Source of the DNA: a phage
DNA length: 64,000 nt
Reading direction: 5' to 3' (one strand)
Assembly: GCA_018175075.1 (NCBI GenBank)
Contig: GCA_018175075.1_4100.1
Made by a program: the position numbers and the translations under genes
In this document: one piece after another, positions 5,509 to 57,100 of the stretch
Layout: every line of letters starts with the position of its first letter
Position numbering within the stretch: position 1 is the first letter of the stretch
The notes under the pieces: generated by a model
What the model was told of the DNA's origin: nothing
Databases searched by the model: none
What the model saw: only the letters and a program-made list of their open reading frames with translations

Positions 5509-5859
5509 ATGAAAATTATTTTATTTTTTGTATGTATGTTAATGTGTGGATTGTCATATGCTGAACCATTGGAAGGTTTAGTTTGTACAGATGGTAATAT
5601 TAAACATATCTATCAAGGTGATAGTGACGATCGAGATATTGTATATATTGATGGACAATCATATACGTTTGTTAAAGAGCATACAGTAGGCGACATTAGC
5701 TTCACTGAGTTTTCTAACGACACAGACCCTAACTTCTTAGCGTTTATTGAAGTAGATGTATATGAAGATAGTAATGGCACACAATATGCTAAATTAGTTA
5801 TGATGCGTCGTGGTGCTAAAGAAACTAGTTTTGGTGGCTTGTGTAAATATAAGGATTGA
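5509..5859 (+). CDS. secreted protein (signal peptide)
   Basis: signal MKIILFFVCMLMCGLSYAEP. Confidence 0.6.
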   Translation: MKIILFFVCMLMCGLSYAEPLEGLVCTDGNIKHIYQGDSDDRDIVYIDGQSYTFVKEHTVGDISFTEFSNDTDPNFLAFIEVDVYEDSNGTQYAKLVMMRRGAKETSFGGLCKYKD

Positions 5860-40592: not shown

Positions 40593-41003
40593 TTAAACAC
40601 ATAGAGACAGGGGAAGCTCCTAGTGAACAACCTTTATGTACAGGCGAATTGTTAAAATTCAGCCTGGACAAATGCGATCACTAGGATTCTCCCCAGGCTA
40701 AACCCCGTAATCATAGGTAGTCATAAGTAATCATATATAAACATTTATATGAGCACCGTAGAATCACAGAATGATTATATATGATTCAGTACTGATTAGT
40801 ATAGACAAGATTGCTCAAGAATGCACGGAAATGTGTGTGAATGATTCAGTACTGATATCCCACTAAGTAGGCAGAGGAAGTCTGCCGTACTTTGTAGTTT
40901 CCAAGCTCCTTTTCCATTTTGCAAATTACATCAAATGTAATCAAAAGTAATCACACAATGATTAGTACTGAATTATTACTTTCACCTTAATTACAATTAC
41001 CCT

Positions 41004-44138: not shown

Positions 44139-44167
44139 ATTATGCCAGTACTGGATAGTGCTGTCAA
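44139..44167 (-). promoter_or_regulatory. minus-strand promoter TTGACA/17/CATAAT
   Basis: read as reverse complement; convergent with 43995 promoter. Confidence 0.4.
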
Positions 44168-44211
44168 TACTTTTTTAATATTCAGTACTGAAAACTATTT
44201 TTAAAAAGTAC

Positions 44212-44357
44212 TTGCAAACTATGTTTAAAGGCGTATAATGTTTTACATCAGGACGGGGAACGAAATAAGTAACTTCCCGTTAAGTAGCCCAGGAGTAAGG
44301 CACACGAAAAACTCCCCTGATAAAATAGTTTGACAATTGTTTTTAAAAGCGTATAAT
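44212..44357 (+). promoter_or_regulatory. tandem promoters flanking a conserved leader (copy 1)
   Basis: TTGCAA 44212/TATAAT 44234; leader hairpin; second TTGACA 44330/TATAAT 44352; homologous block at 55428-55571. Confidence 0.5.
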
Positions 44358-44389
44358 ACTTACATCAACTACTGAATGAGGGTTACAAA

Positions 44390-45001
44390 ATGAAAACTAT
44401 CACTACTACTACTTTCGTTATGGATTTTTCTGAATTGAACGCAGAACAAAAAACGTCAGCTATCGAACTGGTTCGGGAACGTGAAAAAAACTCAAACGAC
44501 AATTATTTTTCTGAAAGTGAAATTGAATACTATAAAGAAACAGTACTACCGGAATATGGCATTAATGACGCTGAAATACAATTCAGTGGCTTTTGGTCCC
44601 AGGGTGACGGTGCATCAATCAGTACTGACCACGTTGACGCAGTGAAGTTTTTACGCAAGGTAAGAGCATTAACTAAGTATCGCTCAATCCGTCACCTGCT
44701 GAATGAAGATGATTTGGCGATGAGTGTAAAGCGTTCGCACTCCCACTACTCGCATGAGAATACTGTAAGCGGGTACATTGAATCGGCTTACACTGATTTA
44801 ACCGCAAAACAAGAAACGTTAGTTAATGAGCTTGAGGAACTACTCACTGAAACTATTCGTGAATTGTCCCGCAAGTTGTACCGTGATTTAGAGAATGCAT
44901 ATGAGGATCAATTCACCACTGAAAACATTACGGCACTGATTGAGGGTAACGAATATCAATTCAATGTTATTGATGGCGTAGTAGAATCAATCGAATATTA
45001 A
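44390..45001 (+). CDS. hypothetical acidic protein
   Basis: 203 aa, GAGGG RBS. Confidence 0.65.
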   Translation: MKTITTTTFVMDFSELNAEQKTSAIELVREREKNSNDNYFSESEIEYYKETVLPEYGINDAEIQFSGFWSQGDGASISTDHVDAVKFLRKVRALTKYRSIRHLLNEDDLAMSVKRSHSHYSHENTVSGYIESAYTDLTAKQETLVNELEELLTETIRELSRKLYRDLENAYEDQFTTENITALIEGNEYQFNVIDGVVESIEY

Positions 45002-46460: not shown

Positions 46461-46465
46461 CAACG

Positions 46466-46496
46466 CGGGGAGATAATAACTCCCCGTTACTTTTTC
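46466..46496. terminator. intrinsic terminator hairpin, T-rich on both sides
   Basis: CGGGGAGATAATAACTCCCCG then TTACTTTTTC. Confidence 0.55.
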
Positions 46497-47583: not shown

Positions 47584-47607
47584 AGCCCACCTGGTGGGCT
47601 TTTTTGT
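47584..47607 (+). terminator. intrinsic terminator
   Basis: AGCCCACC-T-GGTGGGCT + T6. Confidence 0.7.
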
Positions 47608-47659: not shown

Positions 47660-47687
47660 TTGACATTACCGCAAAAAGGCGTAGAAT
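47660..47687 (+). promoter_or_regulatory. sigma70-like promoter TTGACA/16/TAGAAT with ~120-nt leader
   Basis: hexamers read directly. Confidence 0.45.
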
Positions 47688-47810
47688 ATATTACATCAAG
47701 ACGGGGAGCACTAAGTAGACCGCCAGTAAGTCGAACGAAAAACTGGACACGTCGAGAAAACTTTGATACACTAATAAACGTAAACTAAACTTTAATTGAG
47801 GATTTATAAA

Positions 47811-48293
47811 ATGGCTAATGTAAAATCATTCATCAAAGCACTGGTAGCAAATGAAACTAACGTCGCGGCTGAGATCCTGGCTGAACTGGATAACGATACC
47901 ATGAAAGCGGTACGCAATAATTTTAACATCGCTTACAGTACTGCGAAAGAACTACAAGCAAATAAAGCGGCAGAAATTGAAGCGGCAAAGGCGGCCCGTG
48001 AAGCAGAACTACAAGCAACAATTGAAAGTATTCAGGCGGCAGTAGTTGGATTGGATCTGGAAGTAGTTACAGAGATGGCACAAAAAGCCCTGGCGAAAAA
48101 GTACGGTGAAGATAAGCCAGAAGTAAAAGCTAAAAAATGGATTCAAGAACGTGTAGCGGTAGTACTTGATAACGGGGAAGAATATCTGATTCCGGTGCGT
48201 GGTAACTGCATTGCGGTAGTACTGGATGCGATTAACTCCAGTGGTATGACTCGCGAGGAATGGATCGAAGCTCATCGCAAAGTTGAAGCATAA
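47811..48293 (+). CDS. hypothetical Ala/Glu-rich helical protein
   Basis: ATG 47811 with GAGGA RBS; 160 aa. Confidence 0.6.
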   Translation: MANVKSFIKALVANETNVAAEILAELDNDTMKAVRNNFNIAYSTAKELQANKAAEIEAAKAAREAELQATIESIQAAVVGLDLEVVTEMAQKALAKKYGEDKPEVKAKKWIQERVAVVLDNGEEYLIPVRGNCIAVVLDAINSSGMTREEWIEAHRKVEA

Positions 48294-48314: not shown

Positions 48315-48341
48315 AGCCCACTTATACAGTGGGCTTTTTTG
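48315..48341 (+). terminator. intrinsic terminator
   Basis: AGCCCAC-TTATACA-GTGGGCT + T6. Confidence 0.7.
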
Positions 48342-55427: not shown

Positions 55428-55571
55428 TTGCATTGTACTTAGAATAAAGTATAATGTTTTACATCAGGACGGGGAACGAAACAAGTAACCCCGTTAAGTA
55501 GTCCAGGAGTAAGACATACGAAAAACTCCCCTGATAAAATAGTTTGACAATAGAAAGTAAACGAGTATAAT
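55428..55571 (+). promoter_or_regulatory. tandem promoters flanking a conserved leader (copy 2)
   Basis: TTGCAT 55428/TATAAT 55450; hairpin ACGGGG..CCCCGT; second TTGACA 55544/TATAAT 55566. Confidence 0.5.
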
Positions 55572-55604
55572 ACTCACATCAACCACTGATAAGGAAACAT
55601 AAAA

Positions 55605-55880
55605 ATGCGGATTCTACTGACAGCTAACGAAATCGAACAAGTACTGACTACTAACCTGGAAGACTGGAAACGTGAAGCAGATATCCAGGCGGTTCAACAG
55701 CTTAACGATGAGTTAACGCCGGATGACTTAAGCAAGATTGTAGATCCTCAATTCTACGAAGATATCCACGACACCGCGTTAAGCGTCGAGGATGTACTAG
55801 ATAAGCACTACATTGATATTGATTTGCAGGTTTACGGTCGTAAAAACTTTATCACTATTCACGACATTTACAATAATTAA
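55605..55880 (+). CDS. hypothetical acidic protein
   Basis: 91 aa, AAGGAAA RBS. Confidence 0.6.
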   Translation: MRILLTANEIEQVLTTNLEDWKREADIQAVQQLNDELTPDDLSKIVDPQFYEDIHDTALSVEDVLDKHYIDIDLQVYGRKNFITIHDIYNN

Positions 55881-57053: not shown

Positions 57054-57076
57054 TAACTTGCAGTACTAACAACACG

Positions 57077-57100
57077 GCGGGATCAGTTCCCGCCTTTTTT
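57077..57100 (+). terminator. intrinsic terminator
   Basis: GGCGGGA-TCAG-TTCCCGCC + T6. Confidence 0.7.

Follow-up and report, generated by a model that had tools for sequence, protein, structure and literature searches.

The 64,000-nt stretch of phage DNA analysed here (contig GCA_018175075.1_4100.1 of NCBI GenBank assembly GCA_018175075.1; hereafter, the window) contains two similar blocks, at 44212-44389 (copy A) and 55428-55604 (copy B), and a third copy of their common core (copy C) behind a promoter at 47660-47687, all on the plus strand. Such a block combines a standard early promoter of the host type with a folded leader RNA some 75 nt long, in most cases followed by a second consensus promoter, and the RNA is the part under selection. 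It is highly probable that this RNA is a real, conserved and structured element homologous to the A1 leader of phage T7. Virulent phages of no fewer than four unrelated lineages, infecting Enterobacterales and Aeromonas, share the motif. That the composite block carries a selected leader RNA, that a host component recognises this RNA, and that it acts co-transcriptionally in the manner of the put RNAs of phage HK022 is, taken as one statement, a reading to which we would give a probability of about 0.45.

The conserved core in the window

A preliminary description of this DNA had placed the two blocks at the above positions, where both were found, and had presented them as a conserved leader of about 150 nt between two promoters, repeated with only a few substitutions. 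In the pairwise alignment of copies A and B, identity reaches 92% in the leader core (44247-44321 versus 55463-55535; 69 of 75 positions, with one 2-nt indel), 100% both from the first -10 to the transcription start and in the linker with the second -35, 94% in the -10 of the second promoter, and 85% in the UP region and -35 of the first. By contrast, identity falls to 47% and 56% in the spacers of the first and second promoters, respectively, to 59% in the 5' untranslated region (5'UTR), and to 51% at the start of the coding sequences. Few substitutions, therefore, is an apt wording for the core, the -10 and the linker and not for the spacers and the 5'UTR (47-59%), and the similarity extends well beyond the promoter hexamers. 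The combination of randomised spacers and a retained core indicates selection on the core rather than a recent wholesale duplication. Chance is excluded as the origin of the repeated core, since ACATCARGACGGGGA is matched five times in the window against 0.06 expected, and AGTAAGNCNNACGAAAAACT three times against 0.00 expected. The genes that follow the two blocks had been called unrelated, and indeed they fall into different PHROG families.

The conserved motif consists of an unpaired YUAAGUAGNC, followed within 2-4 nt by a hairpin of 4-5 bp (P3) whose loop of 14-17 nt, (A)UAAG.C..AYGAAAA(A), is invariant. Both unpaired segments are enclosed by a closing helix, the 3' strand of which begins 0-3 nt past the P3 hairpin, in the window copies as elsewhere. 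In copy A, the transcript probably starts at A44247 (+1), by analogy with T7 A1 (ATCGAG in T7, ATCAGG here), and the leader RNA (44247-44321) is predicted to fold into a three-way junction. Its closing helix (P1) would pair 44247-44252 (AUCAGG) with 44316-44321 (CCUGAU); P2 (44253-44280) is an ordinary 5' hairpin of the early promoter cassettes described below; the single-stranded segment J, UAAGUAGCCCA, occupies 44281-44291; and P3 pairs 44292-44296 (GGAGU) with 44311-44315 (ACUCC) around the loop AAGGCACACGAAAA (44297-44310). The minimum-energy fold has a z of -2.4 and the closing helix a permutation p of 0.003. The same layout is predicted for copy B (55463-55535), with P1 at 55463-55468 and 55530-55535 (AUCAGG/CCUGAU), P2 at 55469-55494, J, UAAGUAGUCCA, at 55495-55505, and P3 at 55506-55510 and 55525-55529 around the loop AAGACAUACGAAAA (z = -3.0; closing-helix permutation p = 0.002).

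The sequence behind the 47660 promoter, which had been taken for a degenerate version, is actually a full copy of the core: the covariance model presented below gives it 51.9 bits, compared with 55.7 for copy A and 60.0 for copy B. The leader RNA of copy C (47695-47767) has neither the P2 hairpin nor a second promoter. Its J, UAAGUAGACCG, lies at 47712-47722 and its P3 pairs 47723-47727 (CCAGU) with 47742-47746 (ACUGG), while two closing helices can be drawn, one joining GACG (47700-47703) to CGUC (47750-47753) and the other AUCAA (47695-47699) to UUGAU (47763-47767). Relative to copies A and B, the stems of copy C show compensatory changes, with J and the loop retained. On its own, this copy gives a weak thermodynamic signal (z = -0.2).

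A covarying RNA motif shared with T7

The core has a counterpart at nt 551-591 of the T7 genome, TAAGTAGACAGCCTGATAAGTCGCACGAAAAACAGG, within the A1 transcript (start 498) and ending at the -35 of promoter A2. This segment aligns column for column with window positions 44281-44315, 47712-47746 and 55495-55529. A covariance model (R1) was built from an alignment of 33 core sequences, and gave exactly three matches in the window (44275-44321, 47706-47753 and 55489-55535; 51.9-60.0 bits), the next best scoring 10.9. When R1 was applied to 155 fetched loci, T7-like and jumbo-type leaders scored at least 39 bits and everything else at most 26, with one match per T7-like leader and 69.6 bits for T7 itself.

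In the core alignment, the three central pairs of P3 include no unpaired cell and show double-sided changes in 8, 9 and 12 of the 33 sequences (pair types CG/GC, CG/GC/UA and UA/AU). Overall, 90.9% of the cells are paired, compared with 34-47% in slid controls, and none of 500 shuffles reached the covariation score. Little or no variation is seen in the unpaired columns, TAAGTAG.C and TAAG.C..A.GAA.A.C. The conserved transcribed structure that had been suspected is thus borne out, with stems that covary and unpaired residues that do not change across unrelated phages.

A second alignment, of 25 T7-like leaders extended upstream, supports an H-type pseudoknot formed by two further helices (S1 and S2) together with P3, in which 93.8% of the cells are paired (15-35% in slid controls), 10 of 15 pairs show double-sided changes, and none of 500 shuffles reached the score. 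S1 is a hairpin directly 5' of J, its loop pairs with bases 1-2 nt past P3 to form S2, and P3 is located in the third loop of the pseudoknot. Seven different S2 pairs were counted by eye (GUCAA/UUGAC, GUGAA/UUCAC, GCUAA/UUAGC, GAUUAG/CUAAUC, GUCAUC/GAUGAC, GUCAGA/UCUGAC and GUCGGU/ACCGAC). In T7 (locus L015), the 3' strand of S2 (UUGAC, at 590-595) is also the -35 hexamer of promoter A2, so that one DNA segment doubles as an RNA helix. This strand is separate from the promoter -35 in Kayfunavirus, LIMElight and the leaders L198 and L200, which argues that the S2 pairing is not a by-product of the A2 -35. In jumbo-type leaders, for which the RNAalifold consensus is a three-way junction, the closing helix would be formed between transcript positions +1 to +6, counted from the inferred start, and the bases directly 3' of the hairpin. 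A closing helix is found in every lineage, with permutation p values of 0.002-0.3 per lineage.

T7-like contigs were first matched by a pattern built from the unpaired residues, and a blastn search with T7 498-600 returned 489 T7-like phage records, whose hosts belong to Escherichia, Klebsiella, Salmonella, Yersinia, Enterobacter, Citrobacter, Serratia, Pantoea, Providencia and Kosakonia. The core is present in 45 records among Asteriusvirus, Vequintavirinae and Justusliebigvirus. A 79-nt core, about 90% identical, occurs in single copy in a few coliphages of about 145 kb from the latter two groups (outra, muut and EmilieFrey in Justusliebigvirus; A73, W70, A7_1 and A5-4 in Vequintavirinae), always intergenic, on the coding strand and flanked by two promoters. 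Erwinia jumbo phages, including Hallingskeid, also carry the motif, and a further variant matches LIMEzero, Entb_48 and Aeromonas phages; the closest database match of one such leader (L055) is Pantoea phage LIMEzero. Approximately half of 60 metagenome matches were true, and all the true ones inspected were T7-like or jumbo-like. The motif always lies on the coding strand, within about 100 nt of the inferred start from a strong sigma-70 early promoter, and its distance to the next -35 ranges from 0 to more than 40 nt across leaders. Since the second promoter, common as it is, is absent at copy C and in L055-type leaders, the unit is the motif rather than the two-promoter leader: of the 150-nt leader first proposed, a transcribed conserved core stands, and the selected unit within it is an RNA motif of 45-75 nt.

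Searches of host DNA gave a different result. With blastn, neither 72,556 plasmids nor 5,426 E. coli genomes gave any match, although similarities of 19 nt or less would escape detection in the E. coli set. A pattern scan of 185,579 genomes, one per bacterial species, gave 19 matches, none of them in Enterobacterales, against about 17 estimated by hand for random sequence. A host origin or mimicry of a host element was rejected on these grounds.

The leader of phage muut (L002, 2496-2700, compared with window 55461-55700) is chimeric. It resembles outra and EmilieFrey in the promoter, the P2 hairpin and the P3 loop, whereas in the second promoter, the 5'UTR and the 91-aa gene it is almost the same as copy B, which points to a recombination event within the motif that involved a jumbo phage and a 146-kb phage. 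The promoter and the motif move horizontally between phage families as a module.

Genomic setting of the three copies

The window comes from a jumbo coliphage of the Asteriusvirus type, and the region matches other members of that group (PBECO4, 121Q, G17 and others) at 93-98%. In one relative, vB_Ec-M-J, the homologue of copy A lies 3.7 kb into an annotated direct terminal repeat of 21.5 kb, which places the cassettes within the terminal repeat, close to a physical terminus of the genome. If entry proceeds as in T5 and T7, the cassettes would be the first DNA to reach the cell interior. The site 40858-40896 on the plus strand lies near the expected genome end and start of the terminal repeat, at about 40.5 kb according to the same comparison. 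It reads CCCACTAAGTAGGCAG followed by a hairpin, GGCAGAGGAAGTCTGCC, and shares UAAGUAG and not the conserved loop; with 10.9 bits and a different hairpin, it was rejected as a fourth copy.

The upstream promoter of copies A and B belongs to a multi-copy early cassette, of which about 25 copies lie on the plus strand between about 41 and 62 kb (about 41200-61500). Their common design comprises A/T tracts flanked by AGTACT, a TTGCAA or TTGACA hexamer, a 16-nt spacer, TATAAT, the start ACAUCRAG and a GC-rich 5' hairpin (GGGGAGAAAUGRUUCUCCCC), after which come a Shine-Dalgarno sequence and a small open reading frame (ORF). The start and the hairpin resemble the beginning of the T7 A1 transcript (AUCGAGAGGGAC..UCCC). 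The sequence 3' of the cassette hairpin is the locus-specific part. The AGTACT palindrome itself occurs 292 times in the window (1-64000), compared with 21.8 expected (for instance at 40788, 40848, 44184 and 44207). It is about four times commoner than any other 6-mer palindrome, with 27-68 sites in every full 10-kb bin, and is found preferentially in the context CAGTACTG. Each early cassette promoter has its A/T tract and -35 framed by two copies of the palindrome, which could be a regulator, modification or packaging-related site.

The first promoter of copy A, a sigma-70 promoter found by a consensus scan at 44212-44239, has TTGCAA as -35, a 16-nt spacer and TATAAT as -10, and is preceded by an A/T-rich tract between the AGTACT sites at 44184 and 44207. 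Just 5' of it, on the minus strand, a near-consensus promoter (44139-44167; TTGACA, 17 nt, TG-CATAAT) points away from the leader, resembling the leftward A0 promoter upstream of T7 A1. The second promoter of copy A (44330-44357) is a perfect consensus (TTGACA, 16 nt, TATAAT), and transcripts from it have neither the motif nor the usual 5' hairpin. The gene that follows (44390-45001, plus strand) encodes 203 aa (phrog_5162, without assigned function or PDB relative). In copy B, the upstream promoter (55428-55455; TTGCAT, 16 nt, TATAAT) falls below the threshold of the consensus scan because its -35 matches at only 3 of 6 positions, and the second promoter (55544-55571) matches the consensus at 12 of 12 positions. 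The downstream gene (55605-55880, plus strand; 91 aa, phrog_14947, no assigned function) and the second promoter also follow the motif in Justusliebigvirus muut.

The promoter of copy C (TTGACA, 16 nt, TAGAAT) begins 60 nt past a terminator-like hairpin (47584-47600), and its gene (47811-48293, plus strand; 160 aa, phrog_27871, no assigned function) is followed by another (48315-48335), which makes copy C the sole motif unit with terminator-like hairpins on both sides. Only four strong hairpins of this kind were found on the plus strand between 40 and 64 kb, the others being at 46465-46487 and 57076-57094, and the stem AGCCCAC..GTGGGCT is common to two of these hairpins. For the three downstream genes, searches of Pfam, PHROGs and PDB sequences gave only families without assigned function.

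Mode of action and relation to known systems

Invariant unpaired bases, freely covarying stems and a distribution over lineages that share only their hosts together suggest that a conserved host component is the recogniser. Moreover, the invariant positions are interspersed with free ones, as would be expected for recognition by a protein or by RNA polymerase rather than for an antisense seed. Among the possible modes of action we prefer, while regarding it as doubtful, a co-transcriptional one modelled on put. As it emerges, the motif would attach to the very elongation complex of host RNA polymerase that has transcribed it, or to a factor present on this complex; immediate-early transcription would thereby become faster, or resistant to Rho and pausing, as with the HK022 put RNA; and transcripts from the second promoter would escape the modification. 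The promoter-proximal position of the motif and the boxA lying 15 nt downstream in the L055-type leader are in favour of such a mode by analogy. As putL exerts its effect without a transcript tether, cutting of the T7 early leader by RNase III would not exclude it.

Several observations weigh against this proposal. T7-like phages carry the motif only on A1 transcripts, with boxA 3' of all three promoters, whereas a general need for antitermination would lead one to expect the motif downstream of all of them. In the window, just 3 of about 25 early cassettes have the J/P3 core, and the unit of copy C is a single terminator-bounded gene, for which read-through has no evident use. The motif resembles put in neither sequence nor architecture, R1 scoring at most 9.5 bits on the HK022 genome, and no boxA is found near the three window copies. 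Finally, P1 is invariant within the jumbo set, so that the evidence for it consists of cross-lineage comparison and thermodynamics.

The same RNA could act after release. According to this alternative, which we consider only slightly less probable than the put-like mode, the promoter and the motif form a small RNA gene set upstream of ordinary cassettes of promoter and gene. Its product, an abundant early leader RNA, would be freed by RNase III in T7, whereas in the jumbo phage RNase E would cut within the AU-rich tail. The released RNA would work in trans, either as a regulator or by titrating, as a decoy or sponge, an RNA-binding protein or a defence sensor of the host. It would account for the second promoter that nearly always follows and bypasses the motif, for the sufficiency of a single copy per T7-like genome, for the unrelated genes downstream (Ocr in T7, three different PHROG families here) and for the sporadic promoter-plus-motif module in Vequintavirinae and Justusliebigvirus. 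A 5' end paired in P1 is typical of stable RNAs, and the interspersion of invariant and free positions fits protein recognition better than a base-pairing seed. Nevertheless, no terminator or defined 3' end follows the motif, there is no known binding partner, the discrete RNA species is hypothetical, and no antisense target of J or of the loop was found above chance in the window. An improbable variant of a leader function is that the motif protects the mRNA 5' end from RppH/RNase E, or recruits ribosomes or S1, and so raises the yield of the first early gene. The GC-rich 5' hairpin with which about 25 ordinary cassettes begin is the same as P2 of the motif, P1 pairs the extreme 5' end, and copy C lies about 45 nt upstream of its own ribosome-binding site with no promoter between. 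However, simple stabilisers do not need some 20 invariant unpaired bases across phage families, and the second promoter yields mRNAs that lack the motif. In T7, the motif precedes gene 0.3 by about 330 nt, with promoters A2 and A3 between, and is cut away from the gene 0.3 mRNA at the R0.3 RNase III site, which makes stabilisation or translation of that mRNA an unlikely purpose.

A function at the DNA level, as a mobile promoter cassette, a recombination linker or upstream elements of the second promoter, would dispense with the RNA altogether. The upstream promoter is indeed a multi-copy cassette, the crossover of the muut chimera falls inside the motif, the 3' strand of S2 coincides with the A2 -35 in T7, and PeSL cassettes are documented mediators of gene shuffling (PMC2839356, PMC4122927). 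This account is nonetheless very improbable, given that compensatory changes in three helices are unexpected for a DNA site, that the next -35 follows the motif at anything between 0 and more than 40 nt, that the S2 strand is no -35 in L198, L200 and Kayfunavirus, and that the spacers adjoining the core have diverged to 47-56%, so that gene conversion is not what keeps the core alike. Least probable among the explanations considered is a ligand-sensing riboswitch or a self-cleaving ribozyme, which the compact pseudoknot or three-way junction and its many invariant unpaired nucleotides might bring to mind. No Rfam family matches: Rfam 15 returned nothing for the whole window at gathering thresholds, only noise for 44200-44400 at E <= 10 (Methylobacterium-1, 14.6 bits against a threshold of 40), and nothing for the T7-like leaders at E <= 1. 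No expression platform is seen, neither a terminator nor sequestration of the ribosome-binding site between the motif and the gene or second promoter, and the junction layout is unlike that of a hammerhead.

Other candidates were considered and set aside. Inspection by eye found CsrA-type GGA sites in copies A and B that are lost in copy C and T7, stop codons that miss the full three-frame coverage expected of a small ORF or three-frame stop barrier, mismatches at key positions of RfaH ops or sigma-70 -10-like pause elements on the non-template strand, a junction layout that is wrong for a hammerhead core, and a likeness of the loop to the 16S rRNA 3' end that fails at invariant positions. A passing resemblance to the pistol ribozyme was unsupported by the Rfam pistol model, and no tRNA or tmRNA was found.

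More broadly than the preferred put-like mode, we tentatively suggest that the motif represents an unrecognised, widespread class of immediate-early leader RNAs that directly reprogram host transcription or titrate a host, possibly defence, protein within seconds of infection. Members of such a class may share a pseudoknot or three-way junction built around UAAGUAG and AAG.C..AYGAAAA, and may be exchanged among unrelated virulent phages of Enterobacterales. If the T7 segment encodes a conserved pseudoknotted RNA that is also carried by jumbo phages, Vequintavirinae and Justusliebigvirus, immediate-early expression of enteric phages from host-type promoters has an unstudied RNA component in common, and there may exist either a protein-independent modification of host RNA polymerase beyond put or an RNA countermeasure against a host factor. 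Few promoter fragments are as widely used in molecular biology as T7 A1-A3, in which the segment past A1 is routinely taken as inert template. The motif is directly testable in T7, with a scope wider than the preliminary description had supposed. Likewise, it provides an annotation marker for the first early transcription units of jumbo coliphages, and it illustrates the horizontal passage of a regulatory RNA module from one phage family to another.

In a full-text literature search, to whose coverage most of the older subscription papers on T7 did not belong, the fold of the motif, its covariation and its presence outside T7-like phages were found undescribed. The T7 sequence is well known, and in the papers found the segment figures only as a transcription template or as part of an 'internalisation signal' fragment, neither a function nor an RNA family being described for it. 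The nearest described kinds, put RNA and the nut/rrn signals, are analogous to the motif, which has neither the sequence and architecture of put nor a boxA beside its window copies.

The closest relative is the T7 A1-A2 leader itself (NC_001604, nt 498-625). Both transcripts have a similar start (AUCGAG in T7, AUCAGG in the window), a 5' GGGA..UCCC hairpin and a following TTGACA promoter. They differ in their closure, since an additional T7 hairpin pairs through its loop with downstream bases into a pseudoknot, whereas in the jumbo version the 5' end of the RNA itself completes a three-way junction, and in P3, which is CCUG/CAGG in T7 and GGAGU/ACUCC or CCAGU/ACUGG in the window. With HK022 putL and putR, the motif shares the position of a nascent structured RNA of about 70 nt just 3' of an early promoter read by host polymerase. 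Indeed, putL lies just downstream of PL, measures about 70 nt, needs no phage protein and works without a transcript tether (PMC9378689). However, put consists of two stem-loops arranged in a V, the first stem containing a triplex (PMC9378689), whereas the motif is a hairpin inside a pseudoknot or three-way junction, and the -10-like pause element described for putL is not seen in it.

The lambda nut sites and rrn leaders (boxA plus boxB) are leader RNA signals as well, and a consensus boxA is found in the L055 leader and, further downstream, in T7-like leaders. Nevertheless, boxB has a GNRA-like pentaloop, unlike the P3 loop with its 14-17 conserved nt, and boxA (YGCUCUUUAACAA) is matched five times in the window, compared with 4.3 expected, with none of the matches adjoining the three motif copies. 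A perfect boxA-like TGCTCTTTAACAA at 5669-5681 on the minus strand lies antisense inside a plus-strand ORF (5509-5859), away from any promoter context, and is most likely due to chance. A precedent for the decoy alternative is offered by pseudo-ToxI and the type III antitoxin RNAs, phage-borne pseudoknotted RNAs able to neutralise a host defence protein. In ToxI, 36-nt repeats are arrayed in tandem beside the toxin gene, whereas the motif is in single copy, without repeats and without an Rfam ToxI match.

Lastly, the PeSL cassettes of T4-type phages are composites of promoter and terminator thought to serve as recombination substrates (PMC2839356, PMC4122927). They resemble the blocks described here as repeated modules of early promoter and stem-loop beside small ORFs, in a plastic early region with modular exchange, for which the muut chimera and the same 91-aa gene cassette in two phage families are evidence in the present case. 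The likeness holds for the promoter with P2 (about 25 copies) and not for the J/P3 core (three copies), and the motif differs from PeSL in its deep covariation and invariant loops, which indicate a function as RNA.

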